Source: a virus
Lineage: Duplodnaviria > Caudoviricetes
Reading direction: 5' to 3' (one strand)
Length of the DNA stretch: 54,893 bases
IMG/VR virus record: IMGVR_UViG_3300022602_000126
Location: 1 to 54,893 of that record
Position 1 is the first letter of the stretch. The number at the start of each line of letters is the position of its first letter. Both the position numbers and the translations under genes were made by a program. Below are positions 1 through 39,412 of the stretch, one piece after another. The notes under the pieces are model-generated. The model saw only the letters and a list, made by a program, of their open reading frames with translations, did not search any database and was not told where the DNA came from.

Positions 1-36
1 ATATCCGCTTGGCGGATTAGTGCTGGTAAATACCAT
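1..36 (-). CDS. GIY-YIG homing endonuclease, N-terminal 12 codons (runs off window start)
   Basis: Reverse complement reads ATG...MVFTSTNPPSGY, near-identical to N-termini at 24531 and 46130; same leader cassette upstream. Confidence 0.85.
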   Translation of the reverse strand, partial: MVFTSTNPPSGY

Positions 37-100
37 TGCTGTGTTCCCTATAAACATAGAGTAGGTAGGGCTGCAACCCGTGACCTACACTATTATTTAT
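37..100 (-). promoter_or_regulatory. Endonuclease leader cassette copy A (TAAATA box + two-hairpin 5' leader)
   Basis: ATAAATAATAGT-GTAGGT-CAC-GGGT TGCA GCCC-T-ACCTAC-TCTA-TGTT TATAGGG AACA-CAGCA-ATG. Confidence 0.85.
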
Positions 101-112
101 AATTTAATTATA

Positions 113-589
113 TTACAAATTTTCTAAGAACCACATATAGGTGGGAACAGTAAATGTCATGCGCCATTCGCCGTTCCATCCTAAATTTTTATAGTTGCCG
201 CTAAGTGGAGTTTCATCATATTCTGGCAACCCATCTTTTACGCCAATCTGTTTATAATATTTTCCCAAACTATAAAACAAATAATCAAGTTCAATCTCGT
301 CGATTTCTATTTGCTTAATGTTTAATATTTGATCAGCAAGAATATTTCCTTGATTGTCAATTGGTGTATGTTTTGGTTGTTTGTCAAGAAGGCGAATTTT
401 AATAGTATGTTCGCCTTCTTCTAAATCACGAGAAAATAAGATTACTTTTTCCTCATCGTCATCTTCTTTTTCTGCAACGACACCATAAGCTGTAACTTCG
501 TCATTTAATAATATTTCAAATTTTGGTGGATCATTGTGCCACTTACTATCTAAAATAATCTTAAAATCAACTAATTCGGTGTCGCTCAT
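113..589 (-). CDS. hypothetical protein
   Basis: 158-aa ORF in tightly packed minus-strand gene run. Confidence 0.8.
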   Translation of the reverse strand: MSDTELVDFKIILDSKWHNDPPKFEILLNDEVTAYGVVAEKEDDDEEKVILFSRDLEEGEHTIKIRLLDKQPKHTPIDNQGNILADQILNIKQIEIDEIELDYLFYSLGKYYKQIGVKDGLPEYDETPLSGNYKNLGWNGEWRMTFTVPTYMWFLENL

Positions 590-592
590 CGG

Positions 593-1483
593 TTAACCTT
601 TTTTTATTGCAGACTTGTCAACATTCTTTTTAAGATTTAACTTAATTGGTTGAACAGCTTGCGGAGGAGCAGCTTGCGGCTGCTGTGGCTGCTGTGGATC
701 AAGATGATGAGGTCCGCCATTTGAAGTTTGGTTGAGCAGAACCTTTTTAAGTTCTTCAACATTACCTTCATACTTGTGATAGCCAGTATGATCAAGCTTA
801 ATGCCAGTATCAGCAAAAATCTTACCGCCTGCAAGACGCCATAGATAACAGAATGTCCAATCTTCGGAAAGATAGTTATCATCCTTGTCAATCATGGTAT
901 CAAACAAACCATACATAAGTGGTTCATACTGAGCACCAATGCCGATGTTATCACGATACTTTAATTCTGGATGAAGAGCAATTAACTGCTCAATAACATT
1001 ACGCTTTACCATCATAAAACCAGTGCCCAGCGTGGAAACTTCAACAAGGTCACCCATTGTAACTGGATTTGGAACAGTGTTAATAACATAACGAATTGGA
1101 ATACGCTTCATTGGATATACGCCGCCGACGACATCCTGATTGACGAGAAGAAGACGAATGATTGCTTCTGGATCAAATCCAAGATCAACATCGATAAACA
1201 TAAGGTGAGTTGCAGCTTGATTAAACAAGAACTTTGCAACAAGGTTATTACGACCACGAGTAATAAGTGATTCATTAACCATTGTATCAATAGAATAGTT
1301 AAGTCCCATCTTACTTGCAATAATACCAAACTTAATCATTGCAATAAAAGTTGCTTCATTACAAAGTCCGCCATACATTGGTAGACAAAAATGAATATGT
1401 TGTTTTCTTAAAAAGTCTAGTGCCTCTGGGGGCAAGCCAAAAGTATTATCTTGTGGCGGTTGTTGATTAATTTCTTCTGTCAT
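593..1483 (-). CDS. glycosyltransferase-like protein (GT-A fold)
   Basis: LMFIDVD (DxD), RGRNNLV, LSEDWTFC motifs typical of phage GT-A-like proteins. Confidence 0.65.
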   Translation of the reverse strand: MTEEINQQPPQDNTFGLPPEALDFLRKQHIHFCLPMYGGLCNEATFIAMIKFGIIASKMGLNYSIDTMVNESLITRGRNNLVAKFLFNQAATHLMFIDVDLGFDPEAIIRLLLVNQDVVGGVYPMKRIPIRYVINTVPNPVTMGDLVEVSTLGTGFMMVKRNVIEQLIALHPELKYRDNIGIGAQYEPLMYGLFDTMIDKDDNYLSEDWTFCYLWRLAGGKIFADTGIKLDHTGYHKYEGNVEELKKVLLNQTSNGGPHHLDPQQPQQPQAAPPQAVQPIKLNLKKNVDKSAIKKG

Positions 1484-1546
1484 TGAATTCTTTCCGTTAA
1501 GTGTAGATATTATTATATATCTACCCCCAACACTATGACATAATTT

Positions 1547-1918
1547 TTATGTATTGTAAAGAACTTGATTGATATTACCAGAAGAAAAATTAGTAATATG
1601 AGCACGGCACCATACAAAGTTGCCAGTAAAGTTAAAGAAGAAATTGCCAGTAACTGCGTTAGTGCCATCACCAACAGTAGTAGATGTGATATCAAACCAA
1701 TCGCTATCTGTTGGATATTGTAGTAAGGTTGCTTGAAATTTAATAATACCAATAAAGTTAGTTAAGCTATAACTAACTGTGTGCAAACCATCAGTATACC
1801 CATAGTATCCATTGCCTTTAAGTTGATTACTGCTCCATGTGGTAGAGACACCATCATATGGAGGGTAAACTTGTCCATGACTAATTGCACTTAATACTAC
1901 TTGTGGTATACTTGCCAT
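1547..1918 (-). CDS. hypothetical protein
   Basis: 123-aa ORF, beta-rich composition. Confidence 0.75.
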   Translation of the reverse strand: MASIPQVVLSAISHGQVYPPYDGVSTTWSSNQLKGNGYYGYTDGLHTVSYSLTNFIGIIKFQATLLQYPTDSDWFDITSTTVGDGTNAVTGNFFFNFTGNFVWCRAHITNFSSGNINQVLYNT

Positions 1919-1920
1919 TA

Positions 1921-2091
1921 TTATTCCGATTTTTCAATTTCAACGATTACATTTTCGCCAACTAATTCTTGAACAACTGCTTCAATACTCTCAACAATAT
2001 CATTTCGAATGATGGTTGGATTATTTGAACTTTTGTCAGCAACAAGTTTGCTTACTTTGATAACTAATACTTCTTCGTAGATTTTAGCCAT
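1921..2091 (-). CDS. small hypothetical protein (MAKIYEEVLVIKVSKL..., 56 aa)
   Basis: Read manually; fills the gap, GGAG upstream, overlaps previous stop. Confidence 0.75.
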   Translation of the reverse strand: MAKIYEEVLVIKVSKLVADKSSNNPTIIRNDIVESIEAVVQELVGENVIVEIEKSE

Positions 2092-2434
2092 TGATATTCT
2101 CCAATGTATTTATTCTAGGTTTGCGTCCACGCTTTTTGCCAGCACCCTTCTTGCCGCCATCTGCTTTAATATCATAGGCAAGACCAAGACGAGTGGGTTC
2201 CATGCCATCAATTTCTTCAATCTTGTCAATAGGAACACTGAACTTACGACCTGTGCGATGTGATGAAATAAACTTCATCGTGCCTTCATCACTGACAACC
2301 CTATCTACATTAAGAAATAACAGTTTCTCAGTGGGCATCCCACCAAATGCTGCTATTGGACACCGTGCTAGAATACGAGTCTTGCTGTTAACGATACCAC
2401 GATTGATAAGGGCGGTTGCTAATGCTTCATTCAT
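2084..2434 (-). CDS. hypothetical protein
   Basis: 116-aa ORF with basic C-terminal KKRGRKP. Confidence 0.75.
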   Translation of the reverse strand: MNEALATALINRGIVNSKTRILARCPIAAFGGMPTEKLLFLNVDRVVSDEGTMKFISSHRTGRKFSVPIDKIEEIDGMEPTRLGLAYDIKADGGKKGAGKKRGRKPRINTLENING

Positions 2435-2438
2435 TATG

Positions 2439-3137
2439 TTACGCTTTCACTTTCTTTACTAATTTATAGACTTTTTTGATGCCATCTTGAAACAACATAT
2501 ACAGCAGTGGAATATTGTCTGCACTTCTGCAAAATACACGAACTGAACCATGGTAATAACCTGTTTCAAGACCTGTGCTGGTACGAGCACACCAACGGTT
2601 TAATTCATATGGCATAAACAAATCATCGCTATTATCAGTTACAAATTTATGTAATTCAAGCAAGTTATCTCGTTGTGTCTTTCTGCCACCATAACCACCT
2701 GTTTGCCAACCCCAATAAGTTTCAAACTCAACCTGATAAGGAATATCTGGGTCATACCTTGTCTCACTTACCAGTTTAACATCAACTGCGATATTGTCAA
2801 GATTATTCATTTCAGCAATATATTGATTATTGCTTGTGGTAAATCCTTTAACTGATGCAAGCAATGACGGATTGTCAAGAATTGCGTCAAGTGCAGCGGT
2901 ACTATTGGTAAAAAAACGAAACAACGCTTCATTACGAAAACGACACTGCGGATCAAGGTTTTTCAGTGTTCGACGCATATTCAGAATGCCGTCCCAATCT
3001 CTTGGAATTGCTAGTTCTACACGAAAATGATACTTTCCATACCATAGTTTGTTTTCAGTGCTAATATGCCACTTAAACAAATGATCTTTAAACCGTTCAC
3101 GGTATTCAATCAGCGTTAATTCTGCTATCTCTGTCAT
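2439..3137 (-). CDS. hypothetical protein
   Basis: 232-aa ORF with GAGG RBS and TTGACA/TATTAT promoter upstream. Confidence 0.75.
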   Translation of the reverse strand: MTEIAELTLIEYRERFKDHLFKWHISTENKLWYGKYHFRVELAIPRDWDGILNMRRTLKNLDPQCRFRNEALFRFFTNSTAALDAILDNPSLLASVKGFTTSNNQYIAEMNNLDNIAVDVKLVSETRYDPDIPYQVEFETYWGWQTGGYGGRKTQRDNLLELHKFVTDNSDDLFMPYELNRWCARTSTGLETGYYHGSVRVFCRSADNIPLLYMLFQDGIKKVYKLVKKVKA

Positions 3138-3193
3138 CTTCTGCCTCTTTATTTTATAATATCACAATTAGAAGTTTTGTCAAGGGGGAAAAG

Positions 3194-3262
3194 ATAAATA
3201 ATATTGTCAGCCACGATGCTACTAACATCTGCTGACTCTATGATTGTAAAGGAATCACAGCA
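3194..3262 (+). promoter_or_regulatory. Endonuclease leader cassette copy B
   Basis: ATAAATAATATT-GTCAGC-CAC-GATG CTACTAA CATC-T-GCTGAC-TCTA-TGATT GTAAAGG AATCA-CAGCA-GTG. Confidence 0.85.
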
Positions 3263-3865
3263 GTGACAAATATTTATTACGTATATCTATACGTTCGTGA
3301 AGATGGAACCCCGTATTATATTGGTAAGGGCAAAGGTCGTAGAGCCTATGCAAAGCATAATGTAAATCTGCCAAAAAATAAAGACCGCATTATTTTATTA
3401 CATATAAATCTTACAGAAGAACAAGCACATAATACAGAAAAAAAACTTATTGCAAAGTATGGTCGCAAAGATGTTGGAACAGGCATTTTACATAACAAAA
3501 CCGATGGTGGTGAAGGAGTTAGTGGTTGGAAACCAACAGATGAAACCAAAAGAAAAATATCAGAAAGTAACATTGGAAGTGTTCCTTGGAATAAAGGAAA
3601 AATTGGTGTATATAGTGAAGAAACTCTTACTAGCATGGGTAATGCAAGAAAAGGTAAAACTCCGTGGAATAAGGGTAACAAAACACCAAAGAAACCATAT
3701 GTTCCTAAACCAAAAAAACCAAGAGTTTTTACAGATGAACATCGTGCAAAATTAAGTGCTGCACGCAAGGGAAAACTTCTTTCCGAAGAATATAAAAAAA
3801 ATATGTCTCTATCTCGCATAGGAAAAACACGCAAACCTTATAAATCAAAGCAAATTACTGAATAA
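3263..3865 (+). CDS. GIY-YIG homing endonuclease with NUMOD3-type DNA-binding repeats
   Basis: YYVYLY...PYYIGKG, E..LI..YGR, N.TDGGEG, basic PWNKGK repeats; GTG start. Confidence 0.88.
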   Translation: MTNIYYVYLYVREDGTPYYIGKGKGRRAYAKHNVNLPKNKDRIILLHINLTEEQAHNTEKKLIAKYGRKDVGTGILHNKTDGGEGVSGWKPTDETKRKISESNIGSVPWNKGKIGVYSEETLTSMGNARKGKTPWNKGNKTPKKPYVPKPKKPRVFTDEHRAKLSAARKGKLLSEEYKKNMSLSRIGKTRKPYKSKQITE

Positions 3866-3866
3866 A

Positions 3867-6068
3867 TTACTCAAACTTGATATCTAATTTGTCATCTACA
3901 ACACTTACGAATAGTTTTTGTGACTTATTGCTGGCAAATAATATCATTTTAGATAATGGAACTTTAATATATTCGTGAATTGTGCGGTTCATTGGTCTTG
4001 CACCAAGAAGTGGACTATAACCCTTCTTGACAAGCCAATCATAAGCAGCGTCAGTAACATCAAGTGTGATATTCTTGCCTGACATTTGTGCTTGCAGTTC
4101 AGCAATGAACTTTTCAGCAATCTTACGGATAGTTTTGCTATCCAATTTGTTGAATGTAACAATCGCATCTACACGATTGCGGAACTCTGGACGGAAATGC
4201 TCTTTAACAGCCGCATCAACCGCATCACTACGATCTTGACTACCAAAGCCAATAACAAGACGCTCACTGTCAGCAGCACCAAGATTACTTGTCATAATAA
4301 GCAATGCTTGGCGGCAATCTGCTCGCTTGCCATTTGTGCCAGTAATAAAGCCTTCATCCATAACTTGCAACAATACTTGTGCAACATCAGGATGTGCTTT
4401 TTCAATTTCATCAAATAATATAATACAATGTGGGTTCTTGGCAACTTCACTAATAAGCAATCCACCAGCAAGGTTAGCATCTTCATAACCAACATAACCA
4501 GGAGGAGCGCCAATCAAGCGTGAGATACTATGCTTTTCTTGATATTCACTCATATCAAAGCGCAGTAGCTTCATAGCAAGCTTTTCACTTAGCTGTTTGG
4601 CAAGTTCAGTTTTACCTGTGCCAGTTGGTCCAAGGAATAGGAACGACCCTACGGGCTTGTTCTCTGCCTTTAAACCAGCCTGTGTGACCCATACACGGTC
4701 AAGGACAGCATCTACTGCTGCATCTTGATTATATACCTTTGCCTTGATATCTTTATCAAGATTAGGCATAATCTTTTGTGTATTCTCTGCACCAAGCTGA
4801 ACTTCTGGAATACCAGTAATGCGGCTTAGTTCACGACGAATTTGTGCAACATCAATAGTGCGAGAACCACGAGACTGTGTGCGACGAAGTGCTGCGGCAC
4901 TATCAATCAAGTCAATTGCCTTATCTGGCAACTTCTTATCAGCCTGATAACGATGGCTCAATGCTACTGCTTCATTGATAGCAGCATCGGTAATCTTAAC
5001 GCCATGAAATGCTTCGTAATTTGGTTTAATGCCACTCAAAATTGCAATACAATCTGCAATGCTTGGCTCGCCAACATTCACCTTATTAAAACGGCGCATC
5101 ATTGCACGGTCTTTTTCAAAGTGCTTGGTATATTCTTCCCATGTGGTTGAAGCAATAACCTTAAAGTCACCACGAGCCAATGCTGGTTTAATCATGTTGC
5201 TTAGGTCAACGCTGCTTTGACTGCCAGCGCCAGCACCATTCATCTGATGTGCTTCATCAATAAAGAGAATAACATTGCCACGCTCGGTGGCAGCGTTCAT
5301 AATCTCTTGCATGCGCTCTTCAAAGTCACCACGATACTTTGTACCAGCCAACAGAGAGCCAACATTCAAGCTATAAACATAATGCCCACGCAAGAACTTT
5401 GGAACATCATTGTTTACGATATTATATGCAAGTCCTTCGGCAATAGCAGTCTTGCCAACGCCTGGATCGCCAATCAACATAACATTGCATTTATTCTTGC
5501 GAGCAAGAATTTGCGTCATCTCAGCAATTTCAGTCGTGCGACCAATTACTGGATCAATCTTGCCATTGTTAACAAGTTCGTTAAGATTGGTGCAATACTC
5601 ATCAAGAGCATTATTACTGCCAACACCAACTTGCTTTTTATTATTCTTGTTAAATTCTTGGATAACTTTTTCTGGTTCAACGCCATACTTCTTTAAGAAG
5701 AACGCAGCATGGCTATGGGTTTCTTTGGAGATAGAAAGATAAAGGTCCGTAATATTAAGTTGCTGCCGACCTAGCAAGATTACTTGTGTAAATGCACGAT
5801 TGAACACTCGTTCAAGACTTTGTGTCTTTTTAGGTTCTGTGGAATCGCTGCCTTGTGGAATATTTTCAAAGATATAATCTTCTAATTCCTTGATAAGGCT
5901 TTCTAAGTCAATGCCCATCTGTCCAAGTATGCGAGAGAAACCACGCTCATAGAGCATACTAACAAGCAGATGCTCTACGGTATAATATTGATGATTGTTA
6001 TCAACAGCGAATTGCTTCGCTATCTTAACTACTTTTTCAAGGTCGCCATTGCTGCTAAAATTTGTCAT
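3867..6068 (-). CDS. clpA: ATP-dependent Clp protease ATP-binding subunit ClpA
   Basis: Clp N domain, two AAA+ modules (GDPGVGKT, GPTGTGKT), FDMSEYQEKH, GAPPGYVG; no long ClpB M-domain; start placed at MTNF after promoter. Confidence 0.92.
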   Translation of the reverse strand: MTNFSSNGDLEKVVKIAKQFAVDNNHQYYTVEHLLVSMLYERGFSRILGQMGIDLESLIKELEDYIFENIPQGSDSTEPKKTQSLERVFNRAFTQVILLGRQQLNITDLYLSISKETHSHAAFFLKKYGVEPEKVIQEFNKNNKKQVGVGSNNALDEYCTNLNELVNNGKIDPVIGRTTEIAEMTQILARKNKCNVMLIGDPGVGKTAIAEGLAYNIVNNDVPKFLRGHYVYSLNVGSLLAGTKYRGDFEERMQEIMNAATERGNVILFIDEAHQMNGAGAGSQSSVDLSNMIKPALARGDFKVIASTTWEEYTKHFEKDRAMMRRFNKVNVGEPSIADCIAILSGIKPNYEAFHGVKITDAAINEAVALSHRYQADKKLPDKAIDLIDSAAALRRTQSRGSRTIDVAQIRRELSRITGIPEVQLGAENTQKIMPNLDKDIKAKVYNQDAAVDAVLDRVWVTQAGLKAENKPVGSFLFLGPTGTGKTELAKQLSEKLAMKLLRFDMSEYQEKHSISRLIGAPPGYVGYEDANLAGGLLISEVAKNPHCIILFDEIEKAHPDVAQVLLQVMDEGFITGTNGKRADCRQALLIMTSNLGAADSERLVIGFGSQDRSDAVDAAVKEHFRPEFRNRVDAIVTFNKLDSKTIRKIAEKFIAELQAQMSGKNITLDVTDAAYDWLVKKGYSPLLGARPMNRTIHEYIKVPLSKMILFASNKSQKLFVSVVDDKLDIKFE

Positions 6069-6074
6069 ATTACT

Positions 6075-6102
6075 AATATAGCACACTTCTTATACTTGTC
6101 AA
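6075..6102 (-). promoter_or_regulatory. sigma70-like promoter for clpA (apparently leaderless)
   Basis: TTGACA-N16-TATATT-N6-ATG. Confidence 0.7.
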
Positions 6103-6109
6103 GTATTTA

Positions 6110-6172
6110 ATAAATAATATTGTAGGCCACGGACGGCAATCCCGCCTACTCTATGTTTATAGGAACACAGCA
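6110..6172 (+). promoter_or_regulatory. Endonuclease leader cassette copy C
   Basis: ATAAATAATATT-GTAGGC-CAC-GGA CGGCAA TCC-C-GCCTAC-TCTA-TGTT TATAGG AACA-CAGCA-ATG. Confidence 0.85.
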
Positions 6173-6703
6173 ATGGTATTTACACGACAGAACCCACCAA
6201 ATGGGTATTATGTTTATCAATATTTAAGGGATGATAATACACCTTATTACATTGGTAAAGGAAAAAATAAAAGAGCGTGGTTAAAACGTAAACAGATTCC
6301 TTTACCTTCCAATACAAATAATATTATAATTATAAAATATAATTTAACAGAAAATGAAGCATTTTCTTTAGAAAAAGAATTAATTAATTTTTACGGAAGA
6401 AAAGATATTAACACAGGTATTTTAAGAAACAGAACTGACGGTGGTGACGGTATGACTAATCCATCACCAGAAACCAGAAGTAAAATGTCAATGGCAAGTA
6501 AGGGAAGACCTAAATCCCCAGAACATTGCAATAGCCTATCACAATCACATCTTGGAAAAAATAATCATTTTTATGGTAAAACTCACACCCCTGAAACACG
6601 AGCAAAATTAAGTGAATTAAGAAAGGGAAGAAAATTATCAGCAGAGACACGTGCTAAAATGTCTGGAAAACGTGGACCTTATAAAAAGAAAACTACGTAT
6701 TAA
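6173..6703 (+). CDS. GIY-YIG homing endonuclease with NUMOD3 repeats
   Basis: YYVYQY..PYYIGKG, N.TDGGDG, NHFYGKTHTPETRAKLSE. Confidence 0.88.
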   Translation: MVFTRQNPPNGYYVYQYLRDDNTPYYIGKGKNKRAWLKRKQIPLPSNTNNIIIIKYNLTENEAFSLEKELINFYGRKDINTGILRNRTDGGDGMTNPSPETRSKMSMASKGRPKSPEHCNSLSQSHLGKNNHFYGKTHTPETRAKLSELRKGRKLSAETRAKMSGKRGPYKKKTTY

Positions 6704-7568
6704 TTGGCTTTATTTTTTGAATTTCTTTAACCAAATTAAGCTGTTCAGTGGTCAAGATTGACGGAATTTTAACACTTATTCTAGCAATATATTTGCCACG
6801 AGCACCGTTCTGTCTAGCAAACCCTTCGTCTGTTATGCCAAACTGACTTTGATGCTGAGTTCCTTGTGGAATTTGTAGTTCTATGGTTTTACCACTTGGA
6901 AGGTTAATAGGAATTGTGCATCCTAACATTGCTTGGAAAGCATCAATGGTAATATCTTCCATGATATTTTCATTATTTCTTATGAATCTATCATGTCTTA
7001 TAACATGAATTTGGATATCCAAATTGCCTCGTGGAACGCCAGGATTGGCATCATCGCCTCGCCCAACAACCTGAAACACGAAACCATCTTCGATACCAGC
7101 AGGAATTTCTAGGGTCAATCGTTCAGTAGCATTTGTAGTTTTATATTCTATAACTTTGTGCTGTGAATTTAATGTTTCTAAGAATGGAATATTAACTTGA
7201 ACTCGCAAGTTGCGATTTCTAGGCTGTTGACGAGTTTGGAAACCAAATTGACTGGCAAATTGCTCATGGAACGCAGACATCGGGTCTGGACCACCGCCAA
7301 AATTAAAATGAAATTCAAATGGATTGCCAGCCTGACGATATGCTTGATGCTGTTGATTGAATTGTGGCTGTGGATTGCGACGAGTATGATCATAATGCGC
7401 ACGAGCATTTGGATCACTTAATGTGCTATATGCCTCGTTAATCTGCTGAAACTTAGCTTGATCACCGCCCATATCTGGATGATGTTGTTTGGCAAGGCTT
7501 CTAAAAGCAGCTTTTAATTCTTCGGGGCTAGCTGTTTCTGCTACACCAAGTGTTTGATAATGACTCAT
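6693..7568 (-). CDS. dnaJ: DnaJ-family (class II/CbpA-like) co-chaperone
   Basis: J domain with HPD, G/F-rich region, C-terminal domain, no zinc finger. Confidence 0.88.
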   Translation of the reverse strand: MSHYQTLGVAETASPEELKAAFRSLAKQHHPDMGGDQAKFQQINEAYSTLSDPNARAHYDHTRRNPQPQFNQQHQAYRQAGNPFEFHFNFGGGPDPMSAFHEQFASQFGFQTRQQPRNRNLRVQVNIPFLETLNSQHKVIEYKTTNATERLTLEIPAGIEDGFVFQVVGRGDDANPGVPRGNLDIQIHVIRHDRFIRNNENIMEDITIDAFQAMLGCTIPINLPSGKTIELQIPQGTQHQSQFGITDEGFARQNGARGKYIARISVKIPSILTTEQLNLVKEIQKIKPINT

Positions 7569-9518: not shown

Positions 9519-10053
9519 TTTCTTGTTCCTGTGATTCTGGTTTTTCTTGTTCTTGATCTTTTTGTTTTGTTCCTTGATCAGTTAAACCTTTTTCAATGCT
9601 TGCTTGCAAATCAGCCAAATCAACTTCTTCGCCTGCAATATCAACAGAACCTTGTTTAATATCGCCCATGAGTTTCTTTGGTAATAGCATTTCTACATAC
9701 CAAATTGGAAAATCAACTAATTTACCTTTATGACCGCCTGGTCTAATATCTGCTGGACTGCGAATCTCAACTGGCATTTGAACTTTGTCTTTTTTATAAC
9801 TGATCTTTGCGCCATAAGGCAGCAAACGCTTAGCTGCTGCTGGGTCTGGCATACGATCCAATGGCCACATGAATACACATTTGACCCAATAACGGCTAAT
9901 AATTGGCCCTTCTACTAACTCACCAATACGCCAGTTTGGAAAGGTATAAAAGTCCATGTTATCTAGCACACGTTCAAAATCACAAAGCATGCTGATAGAA
10001 GCATCGCTCATATAAATTTGCTTAATACTTTTTAAATTCTGTTTAATATCCAT
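9502..10053 (-). CDS. hypothetical protein
   Basis: 183-aa ORF with TAAATA box and AGGA upstream. Confidence 0.8.
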   Translation of the reverse strand: MDIKQNLKSIKQIYMSDASISMLCDFERVLDNMDFYTFPNWRIGELVEGPIISRYWVKCVFMWPLDRMPDPAAAKRLLPYGAKISYKKDKVQMPVEIRSPADIRPGGHKGKLVDFPIWYVEMLLPKKLMGDIKQGSVDIAGEEVDLADLQASIEKGLTDQGTKQKDQEQEKPESQEQENEQTA

Positions 10054-10166
10054 TGTGTGACATTCCTAAGATATTTATGTCTAAAATACATATACAACTA
10101 TTACATCATAATGTCATGTTAACAAACTTAAATACTTTTGTGTTACAACCAACACAGGGATATAAA

Positions 10167-10940
10167 ATGCAGCATAAGCGTAAACAGAAGTATAATCAGC
10201 AAATGAATAGTTTTAACAATGGAAACGGAAACTCACAAAAACGAAATTATAATAATGTTATCGAACCAGATCAATTTCAACCTAATAAAAAAAGAAATGT
10301 AGATATAATCCCAAGAAATATTAATCAAGAACACTATCTAGACCTACTAATGGATGATTCAGTAAGTATCATCATCGCAAGCGGACCAGCAGGAACTGGC
10401 AAAACCCTCCTAGCAATGCAAGCCGCAATTAAAGCCCTAAAAAATCGTGATATTGAAAGAATTATCCTTACTCGTCCAGCAGTGGGCGTAGAAGGTGAAC
10501 AACATGGTTTCTTACCTGGTGATTTAAATCAGAAAATGGAACCTTGGACTAAGCCACTGTTTGATGTTCTCCATGAGTACTATAATACTCGTGAAACTCA
10601 ACAAATGGTAGAAAACCACGTTATTGAAATTTGCCCACTTGCATTTATGCGTGGACGCACATTTAAAAATTGCATGATTATCGCTGACGAAATGCAAAAC
10701 GCCACTCCTAACCAAATGAAAATGCTTCTCACTCGTATCGGTGAAGGCAGCAGAATCGTGGTTACAGGCGACGTTAAGCAAACTGACCGCAGTGTTGGTG
10801 AAAATGGTCTATTAGACTTTAATCGTCTCGTAGATAGATTCCAAGATAGCGAATATGTTGGAAGCGTTACATTTACAGGCAGTGACATTGAACGTCATCC
10901 TGCCGTAGAAGAAATTCTTAGAATGTATGGCGATATCTGA
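10167..10940 (+). CDS. phoH: PhoH-family ATPase
   Basis: GPAGTGKT, LTRPAV, GFLPGD, FMRGRTF, DEMQN, TGD..Q.D. Confidence 0.95.
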   Translation: MQHKRKQKYNQQMNSFNNGNGNSQKRNYNNVIEPDQFQPNKKRNVDIIPRNINQEHYLDLLMDDSVSIIIASGPAGTGKTLLAMQAAIKALKNRDIERIILTRPAVGVEGEQHGFLPGDLNQKMEPWTKPLFDVLHEYYNTRETQQMVENHVIEICPLAFMRGRTFKNCMIIADEMQNATPNQMKMLLTRIGEGSRIVVTGDVKQTDRSVGENGLLDFNRLVDRFQDSEYVGSVTFTGSDIERHPAVEEILRMYGDI

Positions 10941-11587: not shown

Positions 11588-11941
11588 CTAATTTCCTCGA
11601 CTCAATATCTTGAGTAATCGCCAAGTGGTATAAGCATCTTTTACAGATTCATTTTCATGTTTTAAATCTTTGGCCCAACTGGTTTCTTGAATCCAACCAC
11701 CGTCTTTGCCTTGACCTTTGTATATTGCCCATGCTTCTGGAAGATACTGTTCATACCAAGTATCTTCATTGTTATCATCTCTTGTCATACCAAAGAAAGC
11801 ATTGCCATCCATTATAGCCATAACTTCGGCTATTGGTCGCAACAGGTTTTTTTCTTTTTGTGTAAACTTTTTCTTTGTAAGTTTTTGGTTATAGTTTTGC
11901 CAAAACCAATGCAAAAAAGTATCAGGCTCACTGCGATTCAT
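11588..11941 (-). CDS. hypothetical protein
   Basis: 117-aa ORF coupled to clamp loader stop. Confidence 0.75.
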   Translation of the reverse strand: MNRSEPDTFLHWFWQNYNQKLTKKKFTQKEKNLLRPIAEVMAIMDGNAFFGMTRDDNNEDTWYEQYLPEAWAIYKGQGKDGGWIQETSWAKDLKHENESVKDAYTTWRLLKILSRGN

Positions 11942-12864
11942 TACAACTCCGCCAATTCGCAGAAAGTAGCACTTAGATTGATTTCAGCATCTGCGACCAT
12001 AGAATGATTTACTAATCCATTGCGAATGATAACAATGGCTTTATCCTGTGCTTCATCGCTACTTGCAAACAAATCAAGATTATCATACATCCAACGAAAC
12101 ACTTCTTCCATTTCATCTGGACGAACCTGACTACAAATTAGCTTGCGGGCTTCACGAATCTTCTTTGCTTTGAACAATTCAACTGCTTGAAGACGATAAT
12201 CGCTGCTGTTCTGCGATCCTTGTGAGATAGCTTGCAAAGTTCCACTGTTACACCCACTTTGTAGAGTATTAATACATTTGCGCAAATCTGGATACTGTGC
12301 GCTAACATAGGTATCTAAAACATCCAGTTCAAAGAGTATATTTTCTTCAACAAGAATTGTTGCTGCACGAGCAGTAAATTCTGTCTTATCAAGTTTCTCA
12401 ATGTGGAAACCCTGACAACGACTATGCAACGCTGGAATAATCTTATTAGGATAATTGCAAGTCATGATAAAGCGAGCAGTGCTGCTATAAGTCTCCATCA
12501 ACCCACGCAGCACTGCTTGTGCGTTAGGCGACAGATAATCTGCCTCATCCAGCAGCACTACCTTAAACTCACCAAATGGCATTGTGGATACAAATCCTTC
12601 AATGCGGTCACGGATAAAATCTACACCATTATCTCTTGACGCATTGATTTGCATCACATCATAATCTTCTACGCCAAGATCATTTATAAGAACCTTAGCA
12701 AGCGTTGTTTTACCTGTGCCTGGTCCACCACTGAATAGCAGATGTGGAATATTCTTCTCATTCACCCATTGAAGAACTTGGTGCTGTTGGGCATCATCAC
12801 GCCAAACATAATCGCTTACCGTGTGAGGACGGTATCGTTCTGTCCAAAGATAATTTGTAATCAT
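11941..12864 (-). CDS. sliding-clamp loader AAA+ subunit (RFC small / T4 gp44-like)
   Basis: LWTERYRP, GGPGTGKT, INAS, LDEAD, SRC motifs. Confidence 0.92.
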   Translation of the reverse strand: MITNYLWTERYRPHTVSDYVWRDDAQQHQVLQWVNEKNIPHLLFSGGPGTGKTTLAKVLINDLGVEDYDVMQINASRDNGVDFIRDRIEGFVSTMPFGEFKVVLLDEADYLSPNAQAVLRGLMETYSSTARFIMTCNYPNKIIPALHSRCQGFHIEKLDKTEFTARAATILVEENILFELDVLDTYVSAQYPDLRKCINTLQSGCNSGTLQAISQGSQNSSDYRLQAVELFKAKKIREARKLICSQVRPDEMEEVFRWMYDNLDLFASSDEAQDKAIVIIRNGLVNHSMVADAEINLSATFCELAEL

Positions 12865-17633: not shown

Positions 17634-20600
17634 TTAACCAAGAATGGTTGTACGAGGAAATTTAAGATAGCTGTCACTTGCAAATGGCAATTGATACTGA
17701 TCTTCATTATTAATAAATTGTGTTTGATGACTATCAAATGTAGTTGGTGCTTTCAATTGAATAGTTTGAATATTAATCTGTTCATATTTTGGAACTGTTT
17801 GATTTGATATACCAACATGCGATGAATTATATTGTAACGTTTCGCCAGATTTAGCACCAAACTGAACCTGAACAACTTGGTTGATGAATATTTGCTGAGT
17901 AAATGTCAAATATACTGTATTATCAGTAATGTTAATTGTCCAAACTCCGCCTCGTTCATTAACGGTTGCACTGCCATTTTGAACTTCGGCATAACCAGGC
18001 ACGATTGCTCCATTCAAATTCCAACCTTGGTTATATTCATTTGGAAATAATCCAACATTATAATTTTCTTGGGTGCTGAACACAATAGTCTTGCCATCCC
18101 AGTCACCGCTATTATCGCCATCAAGACCACCAATAGCATTAATTTGAGTGATTGTATGACCGTTTACTTGGTCAAATGGTATATCAATTGCATAAGCTAC
18201 TGATGCACTTGGAGTGATACTCAGCACATATCCAGTATCGAATGTAGTATATGATTTTGTTATAAATTTTCCTGTATTCAAGTCAAAATTAATATCCATG
18301 TTATTATCAAAGATATAACGATCAGATACAAATGGAATTAACTTAATATCTTGTTTTGGAGTATTTCTAAGATTAAACAAGACGCGCTCGCCAGTTCCAG
18401 CTTTTAAATAGGCTAACACTGCAAAAGTATTGAAACCTAAAATATTGCCATCTGGCTGAATACTAGTAAGCCATTGTGGTAATGTGTTGCTATCTGTTTC
18501 GCCAATGGCAATATCAATATCATTGATCATTAAATTTAAATCATTTGGATAAAGACTTTCGCCACTTTTTATTAGGAAACTATTGCTTGGCACAGCGCCA
18601 GTTAATTTTCCGTTAACCAAACTATAAGTTTTAGTATCTTCGAATAAATCAACATATATGACATCATAAAGTGCATTACCATTACTATCTGTTGCAGTAG
18701 CATAATGATAATCGCCAAAATAGAAACGTTTATTATAATGACGGCGTTGCATGGCAGCAATATAATCACTGGCTTGACTTGGAGTTAATCCATATCCTAC
18801 CAGAATTTTAATATCTTTCTGAATACCCCAATATGGATCGTTTGGACGATAGATATCATTATAATCAAAATAATCAGTATCAGTTAAAAGAAAATCAATA
18901 ATAGTTCGTTTTGCAACACTTGGCAAGCATACAAGATATAGATTGTCATATGGAGTATATGTTACATTGTTAACAGTAAGAGTAAATGTCTGTTGACTGC
19001 CAATTGTTTGACTATAATCATAGGCATCTACTATCATTTTATAAGTTCTATCAATAGTAGTTGGGGCTGTTGTTGTTCCAATCAAACTATTGGTCACATC
19101 AAATGTAGTTGTACCTTGATCCAAACTAAATTGTTGGAAACTTACTCGCCCACTTATTGATCCATCGCTTAATAGTGTCAATCCTTGTGGGATACGACTT
19201 CCACTTACTAGTGAATAATATAATTGACGACCGCTTTTTGCGGTTGCTTGTAAGGTTAACTGACTTACTTCGCCAGCATTGATTGAACCTAAACTTGATG
19301 GCGTAATCCAATTTACATCTAGGCTAGTTGCACCTAAAATTGTTATACTAAAAACTTTATATGGACTTACTATCGAACTATCAGAAGTGCTAGCAACCTG
19401 AACAGCAAATGTATATGTTTGACTAATGGCTGATTGTGGAGGAATATATCCAGTTAACCATCCAGTAGTTGAATCTAAGGATAATCCAGGTGGAAATGCA
19501 AAGTCACTTTTATCCCAGAATCCAGAATCCCATGGAACTGTATCAACTAGCGCAGGATTAACTGTATTTGGATTTCCCTGTGCAAGTTCAAATGCCGCTG
19601 TATCATTATCAACAGGAGGACCAGCATCCCATCCAGTTCCGCTAGTAGCAGTAATGTTATAACTTACAGCAATGTTATCATAATCTATGCCTTCAAATTT
19701 AAAAGCATAAAAGTTTCCACTTGTAAACGTAGCATAATCGCCCAAACTATCTGTAAGTAATATAGGCTGACGATAATTGGAAGTATCGCTGCTTATATTC
19801 GTATCATCATCAGTTAGTAGTGTATTATCAGCACTAATTGCTTCGTGATTGAAGACAACGATGCTATAATTTCTTATATCAAAACTTTTGCCGTCACTTA
19901 CTTCTATTGCAAAGTAATATGTTACTTTACTAATATTATTAAATGACTGACCAATTGGCAAATTTAAATCACTTTGATCCCATGGAGTAGCATCCCATGG
20001 GCTTGCATCAATATCCCAACCACTCGGTGGAACATAATTTGGAATAAGCGGACCACTAATAACGCCATCCGCACTTAAACTTGTGCCTAGTGGTAAATTT
20101 CCACTTAGCAATGAAAAAGTTAACTTATCACTATTCAAGTCAATTGCGCTTATTGGTATATTAATAACAATACCATCAACAAATTCACCAAGCGCAGTAT
20201 AATTACTTGTTAATAACTGAGGAGGATAGTTACCAGTGACAGTTATGGTAAAGCTACGATCAGTAATTTTTCCACTAGCACTGATTGCACGAACCGTGAA
20301 TGTGCTTGTTCTATCTTGCGTAACTGCTTCTGGAACGCCGTCGATACTATATGTGTCTTTTGGATTACCAGTTACTTGTCCACTGCTATCAATTTGTAGA
20401 CCAGCAGGCAATTTTCCTGAAATTAACTTATAATTAACATCTTTTCCGTCTGGTTGACCAGTTGGATCAACTGCTTGAAGTCCTAATTCAAAAAATTGCA
20501 AGGCTTGAACCTTGCCAAGATTTCCAGTTGGAGTAATCCATTCTGGATAACCTGTTGCATAACCTTGTGCACTTTCCTCGGTCAATACATCTATCTGTTG

Positions 20601-21542
20601 AAATAAAGTATTGCCAACAACATAAGGATAAACTGGCGCACCAGTATTATCAACCGTGCAGAAATAAGCATAAGTTCCAGTTGGATAATCTGGAGTAACG
20701 CAATAACGACCATTGTGGGTATCTAAATCTCCACCACCGACAAATTGATAATCTTCAATAAACATACCCATTGGATATGTTGTTAAATCATGCGCAGTAG
20801 TGGCAGCACGATAACTTGGAGATTTTAATCCATAGCCAGTAGCCATATTCTTAACGCCACTGGTATTATCTAACGGATTTACATATCCATTTGGTCCATA
20901 AATTGGAAATCCATCTAGACTAAAGCCAAGAATCTTACTATGTCCATCAGGATGAAATAAACTTCCATTCAAATATGAAATAACATTAACTTCTGGCAAA
21001 CCATGAACAGTGCTGCTATATGGACGACCGCCTAAGCCACTTAACCAAATTGGAGCAAAGCTATAATCATTATAAAAATATTGTCCACTAGGAGTTGAAC
21101 GACCGCCTGCAAGGTCTTGTTTATACCAGTGTTGACCATTGTCAATTTGTCCTTGACGAATACCGTTTGCATAAGTTTGATCAAAATGAAATCCAAATGG
21201 AGTAGTAAATCCAAATGGCGGAGCAGTATCAATTGCTGCTGGATAAATTGCAACGCCATTTAACCAAAAACCAACCAACTGTTGTCCAGTTGTCATAGGA
21301 TTGGCGGTTAAATTTTGTCCACTATTGTCAACCCAGCTACGATTATAATATTCGGCTAGAATAGCAGTGCTTTCATATATGCTGCCATATCCATGATAAG
21401 GAATACCAGTAGCAGTAAAATTTACAGTATTGGCAATTTCATTGTTGATTGGAACATTTGTCAAAAATGTCCAATTATCACTCACGTTTATTAAACGACC
21501 AAGTTGAAGGTTGGTGGCTAAACCATTAAACGACGATGCCAT
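17634..21542 (-). CDS. large virion protein with N-terminal YHYH-type domain and repeated putative Ig-like domains
   Basis: HSKILGFSLDGFPIYGP, DLD..NGR..VTPDYP.GTYAYF; repeats of L.SG.LP.GL.L...G.I.G. Confidence 0.7.
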   Translation of the reverse strand: MASSFNGLATNLQLGRLINVSDNWTFLTNVPINNEIANTVNFTATGIPYHGYGSIYESTAILAEYYNRSWVDNSGQNLTANPMTTGQQLVGFWLNGVAIYPAAIDTAPPFGFTTPFGFHFDQTYANGIRQGQIDNGQHWYKQDLAGGRSTPSGQYFYNDYSFAPIWLSGLGGRPYSSTVHGLPEVNVISYLNGSLFHPDGHSKILGFSLDGFPIYGPNGYVNPLDNTSGVKNMATGYGLKSPSYRAATTAHDLTTYPMGMFIEDYQFVGGGDLDTHNGRYCVTPDYPTGTYAYFCTVDNTGAPVYPYVVGNTLFQQIDVLTEESAQGYATGYPEWITPTGNLGKVQALQFFELGLQAVDPTGQPDGKDVNYKLISGKLPAGLQIDSSGQVTGNPKDTYSIDGVPEAVTQDRTSTFTVRAISASGKITDRSFTITVTGNYPPQLLTSNYTALGEFVDGIVINIPISAIDLNSDKLTFSLLSGNLPLGTSLSADGVISGPLIPNYVPPSGWDIDASPWDATPWDQSDLNLPIGQSFNNISKVTYYFAIEVSDGKSFDIRNYSIVVFNHEAISADNTLLTDDDTNISSDTSNYRQPILLTDSLGDYATFTSGNFYAFKFEGIDYDNIAVSYNITATSGTGWDAGPPVDNDTAAFELAQGNPNTVNPALVDTVPWDSGFWDKSDFAFPPGLSLDSTTGWLTGYIPPQSAISQTYTFAVQVASTSDSSIVSPYKVFSITILGATSLDVNWITPSSLGSINAGEVSQLTLQATAKSGRQLYYSLVSGSRIPQGLTLLSDGSISGRVSFQQFSLDQGTTTFDVTNSLIGTTTAPTTIDRTYKMIVDAYDYSQTIGSQQTFTLTVNNVTYTPYDNLYLVCLPSVAKRTIIDFLLTDTDYFDYNDIYRPNDPYWGIQKDIKILVGYGLTPSQASDYIAAMQRRHYNKRFYFGDYHYATATDSNGNALYDVIYVDLFEDTKTYSLVNGKLTGAVPSNSFLIKSGESLYPNDLNLMINDIDIAIGETDSNTLPQWLTSIQPDGNILGFNTFAVLAYLKAGTGERVLFNLRNTPKQDIKLIPFVSDRYIFDNNMDINFDLNTGKFITKSYTTFDTGYVLSITPSASVAYAIDIPFDQVNGHTITQINAIGGLDGDNSGDWDGKTIVFSTQENYNVGLFPNEYNQGWNLNGAIVPGYAEVQNGSATVNERGGVWTINITDNTVYLTFTQQIFINQVVQVQFGAKSGETLQYNSSHVGISNQTVPKYEQINIQTIQLKAPTTFDSHQTQFINNEDQYQLPFASDSYLKFPRTTILG

Positions 21543-24464: not shown

Positions 24465-24530
24465 ATAAATAATAGTGTAGATCACGGATTCGCAGTCCCA
24501 TCTACTCTATCGCCTAGGAGGGCAACAGCA
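24465..24530 (+). promoter_or_regulatory. Endonuclease leader cassette copy D
   Basis: ATAAATAATAGT-GTAGAT-CAC-GGAT TCGCA GTCC-C-ATCTAC-TCTA-TCGCC TAGGAG GGCAA-CAGCA-ATG. Confidence 0.85.
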
Positions 24531-25187
24531 ATGGTATTTACCAAACAAAATCCACCAAGTGGATATTATGTATATGCTTATATAAGAGCAAGTGATTTAA
24601 CTCCATATTATATTGGTAAGGGCAAAGAAAATCGTGCTTACAATAAACACGATAACATACCTATTCCAAAAAATCAAGATAGAATTATAATTGTTGAGCA
24701 TAATTTAACTGAAATCGGTGCATTGGCAATAGAACGCCGATTGATTGCTTGGTATGGTCGCAAAGATAATAATACTGGTATTTTAAGAAATAAAACTGAT
24801 GGTGGTGATGGAATATCTGGAAGAGTATATTCTGTTGAAGACTTATCAAAAATGAGTGCGAGTATGAAGGGGAAAAATAAAAACCCAAAAACAGAAGAAC
24901 ACAAAAATAAAATTTCTTCTGCAATGACTGGACGAAAATTTAGTGAAGAACATAAAGAAAAATTGAAAAAAACTAGGTCTCTTGAAACTCGCAAAAAAAT
25001 GTCAGAATCCGCCAAGAAAAGAAAACATTCCCCAGAAAGCATAGAAAAAATTAGAATGAGTTCTAGTGGAAGAACTCATTCCAAAGAAACAAAGGAAAAA
25101 ATTGGATTGGCAAGTCGTTTAAGAGGAAAAAAATCTACTTATATTTCACCGACATTGAATCGCCTGTATCTGGATCAAACATTGTAA
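24531..25187 (+). CDS. GIY-YIG homing endonuclease with NUMOD3 repeats
   Basis: YYVYAY..PYYIGKG, N.TDGGDG, H(S/T)EE.K.KIS repeats. Confidence 0.88.
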
Positions 25188-34729: not shown

Positions 34730-34796
34730 ATAAATAATAGTGTAGGCCACGGATTCGCACTCCTGCCTACTCTATCGCCTGGGAGGGCAACAGCAA
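34730..34796 (+). promoter_or_regulatory. Endonuclease leader cassette copy E
   Basis: ATAAATAATAGT-GTAGGC-CAC-GGA TTCGCAC TCC-T-GCCTAC-TCTA-TCGCC TGGGAG GGCAA-CAGCAA-ATG. Confidence 0.85.
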
Positions 34797-35480
34797 ATGT
34801 ATTTACGAAACAAATATACCGCTTGGTATTATAATATTATAAATTACGCAAAATCAAGAACTTTATCACCTGATGTTTATACAGAAAAACATCATATTAT
34901 ACCAAAAAGTTTAGGCGGTGATAATAGCAAAGATAATCTTGTAAAACTTACCGCAAAAGAACATTTTATATGCCATTTATTATTACCAAAAATGGTTGAA
35001 ATTAATGTTCAGAAAAAAATGATATTTGCATTATGGCGAATGTCATTTGGGAAAGATAGATATAAACCTTGTTCAAGATTATATGAAAATATAAGAAAAT
35101 TAGCAGCGGCAAATCAAACAGGAACAAACCATTGGTCAAAACAACCAGGAAAAATACATAATACCAAAATTAATCATCCAAGAGGCATGTTAGATAAAAA
35201 ACATACGGCAGAAACTAAACAAAGAATGGTTTCTGCGCAAACAGGCGAAAAAAATCATTTCAAAAATAAAAAACATACGGATGATACAAAAGAACTTATT
35301 AGAGTTAAGCGAAAATCAAAAATTTGGATTACAAACGGCGAAATAGATTTAATGTTGGATAAAACTCTCCCTATACCAAATGGATTTAGTAGAGGAAGAG
35401 TCAATGGTTTGCGAGGATTATACATCAACAATATCTATAAACTCACCAGTTTCCATATAACGGGCAGCAAGCAAAGTTAA
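34797..35480 (+). CDS. HNH homing endonuclease (Mob-like) with NUMOD3 repeats
   Basis: EKHHIIPKSLGG.NS.DNLV.LTAKEHFICHLLL; KKHT.ETK repeats. Confidence 0.9.
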   Translation: MYLRNKYTAWYYNIINYAKSRTLSPDVYTEKHHIIPKSLGGDNSKDNLVKLTAKEHFICHLLLPKMVEINVQKKMIFALWRMSFGKDRYKPCSRLYENIRKLAAANQTGTNHWSKQPGKIHNTKINHPRGMLDKKHTAETKQRMVSAQTGEKNHFKNKKHTDDTKELIRVKRKSKIWITNGEIDLMLDKTLPIPNGFSRGRVNGLRGLYINNIYKLTSFHITGSKQS

Positions 35481-38845: not shown

Positions 38846-38922
38846 TGGCGATCTCGGCAGGACTCTAACCTGCAACCTAGTGGGTAGAAGCCACTTGCTC
38901 TATACAGTTAAGCTACGAGACC
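38846..38922 (-). tRNA. tRNA-Arg(UCU)
   Basis: Cloverleaf; anticodon arm AGTGG-CTTCTAC-CCACT; CCA encoded; atypical T-loop TTAGAGT. Confidence 0.88.

Positions 38923-39322: not shown

Positions 39323-39407
<85 letters not shown>

Positions 39408-39412
<5 letters not shown>

Follow-up and report, generated by a model that had tools for sequence, protein, structure and literature searches.

A conserved, covarying leader at the head of mobile homing endonuclease cassettes in uncultivated, mostly lake-water phages

Introduction

The virus record IMGVR_UViG_3300022602_000126 (IMG/VR; Caudoviricetes), analysed here over its whole 54,893 nucleotides (nt) and referred to as the window, contains six copies of a structured leader, each placed directly before the gene of a homing endonuclease (HE); the focal copy lies at positions 3194-3262. 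The leader opens with a T4-type late promoter, folds into three covarying helices (P1, P1b, and P2), coincides with the edge of an inserted cassette, and extends as a nucleotide-level TATTTA into the open reading frame (ORF) behind it. We put at roughly 60% the probability that this element is the 5' control module of mobile, free-standing HE cassettes in uncultivated, mostly lake-water phages with T4-type late transcription. It would be a conserved cis-regulatory leader, with a mechanism that we infer from its layout, and it probably confines these selfish nuclease genes to late, low-level expression.

To spread, a homing endonuclease needs a certain level of expression, yet too much would harm the phage that carries it. 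In phage T4 each HE gene has an ad hoc hairpin for this purpose, whereas here one modular leader is kept in at least 158 distinct copies—a strong, as yet uncurated candidate for a new cis-regulatory RNA family.

Six copies with one architecture

The 12-mer ATAAATAATAKT occurs exactly six times in the window, at 89-100 on the minus strand and from 3194, 6110, 24465, 34730, and 46065. With up to one mismatch there are 10 matches where 4.2 are expected, and since 4 of 100 shuffles reach that number, the 12-mer alone is weak evidence. A covariance model (R1), built from 12 copies with a structure written by hand and run over the whole window with filters off, scores the six leaders at 69.7-79.4 bits and finds nothing else above 14.5 bits (E-value 0.39). 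The original prediction, made from the sequence of the window, had placed six copies at these positions, in front of five GIY-YIG genes, one HNH gene, and no others; both searches bear this out.

When 130 nt around each copy are aligned, the upstream sequences are unrelated, after which come the invariant 12-mer, P1, a CAC bulge, and the P1b hairpin; the 3' part consists of a single pyrimidine, TCTA(T), the P2 hairpin with its purine-rich tract, (A)CAGCA, and the start codon. The arms of P1 occur as GTAGGC/GCCTAC, GTAGGT/ACCTAC, GTAGAT/ATCTAC, and GTCAGC/GCTGAC, while CAC, TCTA(T), and (A)CAGCA are the same in all six copies.

The focal copy is on the plus strand. Its late promoter box ATAAATA (3194-3200) lies within the invariant 12-mer (3194-3205), and the bulged hairpin P1/P1b, indicated by alignment, folding, and covariation alike, spans 3206-3236, with G3206 as the predicted transcript start. 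The P1 arms GTCAGC (3206-3211) and GCTGAC (3231-3236) enclose the CAC bulge (3212-3214), the P1b arms GATG (3215-3218) and CATC (3226-3229) around a loop at 3219-3225, and a single T at 3230. A single-stranded TCTA linker (3237-3240), which is also conserved in the loci of a first database scan whose pattern left it free, leads to P2 (3241-3257); here TGATT (3241-3245) and AATCA (3253-3257) flank the loop GTAAAGG (3246-3252), and the Shine-Dalgarno (SD)-like sequence is AAGGA. CAGCA and a GTG start codon follow at 3258-3265. The ORF (3263-3865) encodes a GIY-YIG and NUMOD3 homing endonuclease of 200 amino acids (aa), and at 3271-3277 it contains TATTTAT, the reverse complement of the promoter box, so that the minus strand reads ATAAATA; it begins 9 nt past CAGC, where 5 is usual.

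Three further plus-strand copies, at 6110-6175, 24465-24533, and 46065-46132, precede complete GIY-YIG and NUMOD3 genes (6173-6703, 24531-25187, and 46130-46765), and the copy at 34730-34799 precedes an HNH and NUMOD3 gene (34797-35480). Behind the minus-strand copy at 34-100, with TATTTA at 32-27, the GIY-YIG ORF is truncated by the start of the window; an identical leader in another viral locus (L011) precedes the full-length form, of 213 aa.

Folded singly, all six leaders give P1, the bulge, P1b, and P2, with z-scores of -0.8 to -1.4; because these energies are only 0.8-1.4 standard deviations better than those of shuffled sequences, the case for the structure rests on comparison and not on stability. 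No family in Rfam 15 matches the leaders: at gathering thresholds the whole window yields only four transfer RNAs (tRNAs), and a scan of 1-6300, which holds three leaders, at E ≤ 10 gives two weak, unrelated matches, both off the leaders.

Covariation of the three helices

That P1, P1b, and P2 covary had been read from the six window copies, and the reading is upheld in a far larger sample—the alignments described here have 91-96% of their helix cells paired, against 22-51% when partners are slid out of register. A MAFFT alignment of 33 distinct sequences (A3), fitted to no structure and covering P1 and P1b, has 96.4% of cells paired versus 32-51% slid; in 7 of 10 pairs both partners have changed, and none of 500 shuffles scores as high (a count that is not a probability, because the sequences are related). 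RNAalifold, applied to this alignment unaided, returns the same ten P1/P1b pairs. In the first of two model-fitted alignments (A5; 39 distinct sequences) 91.3% of cells are paired versus 29-46% slid, with double changes in 12 of 15 pairs and helix values of 99% for P1, 92% for P1b, and 80% for P2. The second (A8; 109 distinct sequences) gives 93.1% versus 22-49%, double changes in 14 of 15 pairs, and 99.5%, 97.7%, and 81.6% for the three helices. The column pairs with the highest mutual information are the helix pairs. Besides these the mutual-information scan offers one possible extra P1b pair, and no pseudoknot or long-range signal. The covarying structure of the leader is real.

Two additions to this structure were discarded. 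An extension of P1 by AUAG/CUAU, seen in folds of the window copies, is not conserved: the five-nucleotide spacer (N5) between promoter and P1 reads A-W-A-G-T in the family, and the C of its partner never varies. A K-turn reading of the 3-nt bulge was ruled out by eye; the G-A/A-G pairs that belong to a K-turn are absent after the bulge.

The leader family beyond the window

The original prediction had proposed that the leader be sought in Rfam and then, with a covariance model, in other phage and metagenome sequences, tabulating the genes downstream; the former gave no match, and a search by sequence pattern uncovered a family with mostly HE genes behind it. Two pattern scans of viral contigs supplied the loci. 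The first, defined by the promoter and the start of P1, gave 63 loci, most with a whole leader; the chance matches among them were L003/L018/L061, L025/L035, and L049. The second, a promoter-free pattern and the source of the 109-sequence alignment, gave at least 119 loci, nearly all of which carry xTAAATA just upstream though the pattern did not require it. The columns fixed by the first scan were the promoter, TGT, and CACG, and by the second TGTAGKYCRCG, CTACTCTA, and CAGCA; as the patterns set these columns, their invariance within a scan set is by construction. Counting the window together with the fetched loci, at least 158 distinct copies pass a strict filter that demands a perfect P1 complement and then YYTA.

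This wider sampling corrects the picture drawn from the window on two points. The bases CAC, TCTA, and CAGCA are indeed fixed among the six window copies, but the bulge in the wider family is mostly CGC (76 of 109 copies), more often than CAC. The 12-mer does not hold as an invariant feature, as only its TAAATA is invariant across the family.

One 259-kb record holds nine copies, the complete 338-kb genome of a relative of the window (G001) showed one (150 of 244 first-look candidates scored), and the jumbo phage genomes that carry the leader range up to 360 kb. A search of 185,579 species genomes gave just seven matches, all on short contigs of metagenome-assembled genomes, which give no host assignment. 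The 20 sequencing runs listed as containing window sequence are all DNA and come from freshwater or lake water.

Pieces of the window compared by megablast and blastn with 50,697 named phage records gave no match. A second query of these records, with the leader, gave one real match, the rest being chance: Rhizobium phage RHph_I1_18 is the single cultured phage with a leader copy (MN988519.1 80290-80363, equivalent to L215:2503-2576; 39.1 bits), and its leader, used as the query in turn, matches only itself among the named records. The gene behind it (EVB91_137, "hypothetical protein") matches the homing endonuclease family phrog_314 at 5e-16, and the phage offers a cultured system for testing the mechanism. 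Its divergent neighbour EVB91_136, annotated "putative NAD synthetase", also matches a homing endonuclease PHROG.

Genes behind the leader

Behind the 158 copies we find 139 complete ORFs of at least 50 aa and six cut by the end of the locus; 13 copies have no ORF. Seven of these 13 are themselves cut by the locus end, and the other six are followed by HE-like ORFs broken by stops behind an intact leader (L044, L087, L116, L160 at 5591, L174 on the minus strand, and L182)—decaying copies, as expected in the life cycle of a homing endonuclease gene.

The downstream proteins number 141 distinct sequences (138 from the loci and the window, plus three further window genes). Iterated hidden Markov models assign 94 of them to GIY-YIG and 36 to HNH, 130 together, in line with the proposal that the leader is independent of nuclease family. 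The GIY-YIG class falls into five subgroups, of which group B, without a Pfam or PHROG match, is linked to groups C and D at 94-95% profile-comparison probability. Pfam itself recognizes NUMOD3 in 62 of the 141 proteins, HNH in 19, and GIY-YIG in 12. The remaining 11 comprise two with an endonuclease PHROG (L088 and L111), a T4-type large terminase (L123), and others that are NUMOD3-only, cysteine-rich, or unknown. In L123 the leader (132-198; 54.8 bits, without TATTTA) lies 31 nt before the terminase gene (227-1903), and may be a remnant left after nuclease loss or a leader taken over by a late gene.

Two GIY-YIG genes of the window have no structured leader (43650-44186 and 51744-52358, both on the minus strand; phrog_314 at 1.4e-34 and 1.4e-10). 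Both have an ATAAATA box 11-15 nt before the ATG (at 52369, and at 44173 with an in-frame ATG near 44162), and their mRNAs would be nearly leaderless. Where the leader is present, it can serve as a sequence tag for free-standing HE cassettes, and for their decayed remnants, in viral metagenomes.

A T4-type late promoter and the predicted transcript start

The T4 late promoter is described as an 8-bp box at -13 to -6, about one helical turn before the start, which tolerates A at -13 (PMC2988020, as available in part). The leaders carry a box of this TATAAATA-like type with variation at the -13 position: (N)ATAAATA is found in all six window copies and TAAATA in 154 of 158 family copies, preceded by A in 132, C in 17, G in 4, and T in 1. 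The window has 20 ATAAATA sites where its composition would predict about 34, and they are almost confined to promoter positions; six of them are the leaders, and 11 of the 14 others lie 11-46 nt upstream of an ORF start on the same strand. The distance from box to ATG is 11-28 nt for ordinary late genes and 63-69 nt for the endonuclease genes. A late sigma factor is encoded by the relative G001 (phrog_12791 at 1.3e-78 and phrog_234 at 3.5e-23), and T4 gp55 as a query finds a match in all five large leader-carrying records examined. ATAAATA is this phage's T4-type late promoter, as the original prediction had suspected from the likeness of TAAATA to the late promoter of T4.

The original prediction had also set the first nucleotide of the RNA at the first G of P1. 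The spacing between TAAATA and that G is exactly five bases in 120 of 158 copies; as the first base of the T4 box is at -13, the start should be the sixth base after the box, and the predicted RNA would begin with P1. The N5 of the leader promoters is purine-rich (A-W-A-G-T), a bias that is not seen at 193 generic late-promoter sites of the same loci.

The window itself encodes a clamp-loader subunit (11941-12864, minus strand; phrog_168 at 1.7e-79) and a PhoH-like protein (10053-10940, plus strand; phrog_170 at 2.4e-78), both of which fit replication and late transcription of the T4 type. The gene at 17634-21542 (minus strand), for a 1302-aa protein with YHYH and He_PIG (Ig-like) domains, has an ATAAATA box 28 nt upstream (21570); its product may be a late structural or adhesin protein.

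The edge of the mobile cassette

Three relatives of the window (G001, G006, and G007; 72-84% nucleotide identity) have their ClpA and DnaJ homologues adjacent, with no endonuclease between them. They match the window through ...GTCAAGTATTTA, diverge exactly where ATAAATAATA begins (6110), and resume near 6712, so that a cassette from 6110 to about 6711 is absent from all three. The site 3146-3956 is likewise empty in them; here the window also has an extra 48 nt (3146-3193), absent from the relatives, which contain a minus-strand TTGACA-N16-TATTAT promoter. In one sequencing run (X1), a contig carries other upstream sequence and meets the window exactly at 24465. Over the 158 copies, positions before -12 carry about 0.1 bit of information each, with a sharp rise at ATAAATA. 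By these comparisons the inserted cassette begins precisely at the first A of ATAAATA, and the proposal that the leader is the exact 5' end of a mobile cassette gains the support of both the empty sites and the junction at 24465. No orientation rule emerged for the cassettes: among 113, 62 are antisense to both neighbours, 32 co-oriented, and 19 mixed.

The best two sigma70-like promoters in 1-7000 adjoin two of the cassettes on the other strand (6102-6075, TTGACA-N16-TATATT; 3183-3156, TTGACA-N16-TATTAT; both minus). Each matches at 11 of 12 positions with TG, and they point away from the cassettes, toward the ClpA gene and the gene at 2439-3137. The promoter at 3183-3156 lies within the 48 nt that the relatives lack, as if brought by the insertion or compensating for it.

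A nucleotide-level element inside the reading frame

An element of the module that is new in this analysis lies beyond the start codon, where conservation continues through TATTTAT (+5 to +11) and then ends. Of 45 leader ORFs, 43 have ATTTA[TC] within their first 4-16 nt; of 86 other genes in the window, 4 do. Among 137 leaders with CAGC and an ORF, 124 have ATTTA, exactly 5 nt after CAGC in 96 of the 124. The ATG, by comparison, stands 0, 1, or 2 nt after CAGC, so that TATTTA is read in three frames (65, 23, and 8 cases). A T precedes ATTTA in 123 of 124 leaders; when the motif is in frame 0 (77 cases), the codon before it always ends in T, against a third-position T background of 0.335, although 12 different codons for 11 amino acids are used. 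TATTTA is therefore a nucleotide-level element that carries the module across the start codon, and it offers a clear example of bases being kept within coding sequence whichever of the three frames is in use. As the reverse complement of the promoter, it makes the minus strand read TAAATA-N5-GCTG, a mirror of the sense TAAATA-N5-GTAG.

The start of the window's HNH gene (34797-34820, ATGTATTTACGAAACAAA) is homologous over about 20 nt to that of a GIY-YIG gene (24531-24555, ATGGTATTTACCAAACAAA), one base out of frame, which suggests a recombination junction inside the ORF.

Proposed mechanism

In the mechanism that we favour, a gp55-type late box, (N)ATAAATA, would limit expression to late infection, and the transcript would start five bases past the box at the first G of P1, making the 6-bp P1 with its bulged P1b exactly 5'-terminal. 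The 4-nt UCUA linker would follow, then P2 with the SD half in the loop and half in the 3' arm, and then CAGC(A), the start codon, and the fixed TATTTA 5 nt after CAGC within the first codons. The paired 5' end would shield a poorly translated mRNA from 5'-end-dependent decay, and the compact untranslated region, P2, and the near-absence of single-stranded standby sequence would keep ribosome loading low. Protection by a 5'-terminal hairpin is proposed because RNase E and RppH are described as preferring accessible single-stranded 5' ends (PMC3997798, in the part available). In RNA that reads through from upstream, the AUAAAUA of the promoter could pair with UAUUUAU after the AUG in a helix (P0) that would close the whole initiation region; the logic would be that of T4 I-TevI and Aeh1 mobE, in which only the transcript from the late promoter is translatable. 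The transcript start, stabilization, translational throttling, and P0 are all predicted parts of this scheme.

From the predicted start to the AUG, the minimum free energy (MFE) structure pairs nucleotide 1 in all 144 leaders folded, with mean energies of -9.5 ± 1.7 kcal/mol for P1/P1b and -2.3 ± 1.5 kcal/mol for P2, and the P2 region forms a hairpin in 131 of 144. Among 142 leaders scored for the state of the SD 4-mer, it is "..))" in 58 and "...." in 21. Modelling of read-through RNA places P0 in the MFE structure in 59 of 127 cases, and its mean pair probability is 0.41.

Several points weigh against this scheme. With the SD half in the loop, P2 is too weak for sequestration of the kind in which the SD is buried in a very stable stem, as in T4 and Aeh1, and the earlier suggestion that these leaders hide their ribosome binding site in the T4 sense finds no support. 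Both arms of P0 are invariant, so covariation cannot test it, and with 62 of the 113 cassettes oriented against both neighbours, read-through in the sense direction may often not matter, nor P0 with it. The model leaves unexplained the conserved unpaired CRC, UCUA, and CAGC, the purine-rich N5, and the promoter-like geometry of the in-ORF motif. The fold z-scores are modest, each scan pattern fixed some columns, and the P2 statistics rest on model-fitted alignments. G-U pairs, moreover, are almost absent (0 of 654 P1 cells in A8, none in P1 of A3 or A5), the few U-G pairs occurring only at loop-closing positions; RNA helices seldom look like this, and the pattern suits pairing that is needed on both strands. 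Finally, the runs that contain the sequence include no RNA run, and the start site, strand, and level of the transcript are all deduced from DNA.

Alternative explanations

The most developed alternative takes the in-ORF TATTTA for an antisense late promoter that throttles the endonuclease, which would make the module two-faced; we consider this possible but unlikely. It would fire backwards over the start codon to make a cis-antisense RNA of 65-70 nt covering the SD and the leader, which would fold into mirror hairpins and end in the U-rich complement of the A-rich promoter region; alternatively, the TATTTA promoter would merely interfere with the convergent sense promoter about 70 bp away. 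Two inverted late boxes at that spacing, with identical TAAATA-N5-G geometry, would amount to a portable sense/antisense throttle travelling with the selfish gene, a reading to which we give the same low likelihood. Such a unit would account at once for the strictly Watson-Crick covariation, which lets both strands fold, for a TATTTA that ignores frame and keeps its distance from CAGC (96 of 124) while the ATG slides, and for the A/G-rich N5, which differs from the 193 generic sites and gives ACUUUUAUUUAU after the mirror hairpin. The T before ATTTA (123 of 124, and 77 of 77 at third positions) speaks for it too, as does the T after TATTTA in 86 of 124, a minus-strand A like the A that precedes 132 of 154 sense TAAATA boxes; the copy at 3194 has a perfect minus-strand ATAAATA at 3277, and T4 late transcripts are reported to run on either strand (PMC2988020, in part). 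However, the minus-strand box is GTAAATA in five of the six window copies, and a G stands before TAAATA in only 4 of 154 sense promoters; the mirror stem is not continuous, and A residues break up its tail. A reading of the leaders as minus-strand terminators was dropped, as the terminator scan flags no leader on either strand—none of eight terminator-like sites in 1-7000 falls at a leader hairpin, the nearest, 6192-6206, being inside an ORF. The same facts also fit the P0 helix, and the listed runs, being DNA, offer no antisense RNA to set beside them. The reading, in either its antisense or its convergent-interference form, keeps some weight because the unpaired motifs, the N5, the lack of G-U pairs, and the in-ORF geometry are unexplained by the leader model.

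A role at the level of DNA is distinctly improbable, and would take one of two forms: a recombination substrate like the PeSL modules of T4-type phages, or a hairpin, cruciform, or operator bound by a protein such as the NUMOD3 domain that all five complete window HEs share, in the manner of I-TevI, which is reported to repress its own late promoter (PMC2988022, in part). Homology among copies and between filled and empty sites breaks exactly at the first base of the module, the same leader heads unrelated nuclease families, and the HNH gene at 34797 shares its first 20 or so nt with GIY-YIG genes in another frame, as recombination predicts; the exclusive use of Watson-Crick pairs would suit DNA as well. 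A purely DNA-level role is nevertheless the less likely, because covariation preserves complementarity and not base identity, which indicates a folded single strand instead of duplex recognition, and because the placing of P2 around the SD and start codon makes sense at the level of RNA. A common operator would not be expected of nucleases that differ in their targets, and recombination alone leaves compensatory changes in three helices unexplained. Most remote is the notion that nothing beyond promoter and SD is functional, the likeness reflecting common descent of recent endonuclease duplicates with incidental hairpins. Five of the six window genes are indeed paralogues that share the N-terminus MVFT..NPPSGY, and the modest z-scores suit this notion, but descent does not yield double changes in 14 of 15 pairs over 109 distinct sequences (93% paired, 22-49% slid), one leader retained ahead of HNH genes and of at least five subgroups of GIY-YIG, with proteins that cannot be aligned, flanks at about 0.1 bit beside a conserved module, or intact leaders before six decayed genes.

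Relation to known systems

The logic of the leader is the known late-promoter and hairpin control of T4-like HEs; its architecture, its conservation across nuclease families, and its weak SD hairpin differ. In the portions of the sources at hand, T4 I-TevI, I-TevII, I-TevIII, and segB and Aeh1 mobE are HE genes that likewise have a late promoter of their own, TATAAATA, and structured RNA at the ribosome binding site (PMC2988022), and the two transcript classes of such genes fold differently (PMC2988022; review by Edgell, Gibb and Belfort). If P0 forms, the likeness would extend to a promoter that is one strand of a helix present only in read-through RNA. The hairpins described there are single, very stable, and gene-specific, and bury the SD with the promoter inside the stem (PMC2988022), whereas here the promoter precedes a conserved three-helix leader that is found in at least 158 copies with two nuclease superfamilies. 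It lies upstream of P1, P1b, and P2 and hence inside none of these hairpins, but only inside the putative P0; the SD hairpin is weak (-2.3 kcal/mol), and the strongest helix is 5'-terminal, away from the SD.

The closest precedent is Dassa et al. 2009 (PMC2677866), whose available text describes pre-start hairpins in 15 of 16 endonuclease 5' untranslated regions, ten with a TATAAATA box, with two conserved motifs that are complementary on the stem. These lie before free-standing GIY-YIG and Vsr-like HEs in viral, metagenomic "fractured gene" loci, one hairpin being retained after loss of the nuclease gene. Shared with our leaders are hairpins and a late box before HEs, common to two nuclease families; the loci are marine and associated with split inteins, and the portion of the article available reports no covariation statistics, P1b/P2 sub-structure, cassette boundary, or in-ORF TATTTA. 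Their motif may be the same as ours or a sister to it, a likeness drawn from description and not from sequence. The suggestion of an undescribed class accordingly stands as far as Rfam 15 is concerned, but is partly foreshadowed by these hairpins and late boxes. In a literature search of a limited set, no leader family backed by covariation came to light for GIY-YIG or HNH genes.

Promoter-stem-loop cassettes of T4-like phages (PeSL/PmSL) were reportedly treated by Arbiol et al. in 2010. They resemble our leaders as short, conserved promoter and stem-loop modules repeated in T4-type genomes at the borders of variable genes, and PeSLs are thought to mediate modular shuffling (Comeau et al. 2014, PMC4122927, as available in part). 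In a PeSL as described there, a sigma70-type early promoter (or a Mot middle one) comes after a terminator-like stem-loop, beside ORFans, and the term "late promoter" is absent from the available text (PMC4122927). The leaders do not have this layout: their promoter is late and stands ahead of the hairpins, the SD is part of the structured region, and a homing endonuclease gene follows.

A further comparison is with mRNA stabilizers that consist of a 5'-terminal stem-loop, of which ompA is an example. As in our predicted transcripts, the hairpin pairs the very first nucleotide (PMC3997798, in part); such generic stabilizers have no conserved bulge, linker, or family-wide sequence, and for our leader stabilization is a predicted property.

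Other genes of the window

The genes that flank the cassette at 6110 encode chaperones: a ClpA/ClpB-like two-ring AAA+ protein of 739 aa (3867-6086, minus strand), 42-44% identical to those of jumbo phages, e.g., PA5oct, and a DnaJ with a J domain and a C-terminal domain (6693-7568, minus strand). The four tRNA genes returned by Rfam (46.8-64.4 bits) lie at 38849-38922, 39326-39412, 39889-39961, and 43193-43266, all on the minus strand.

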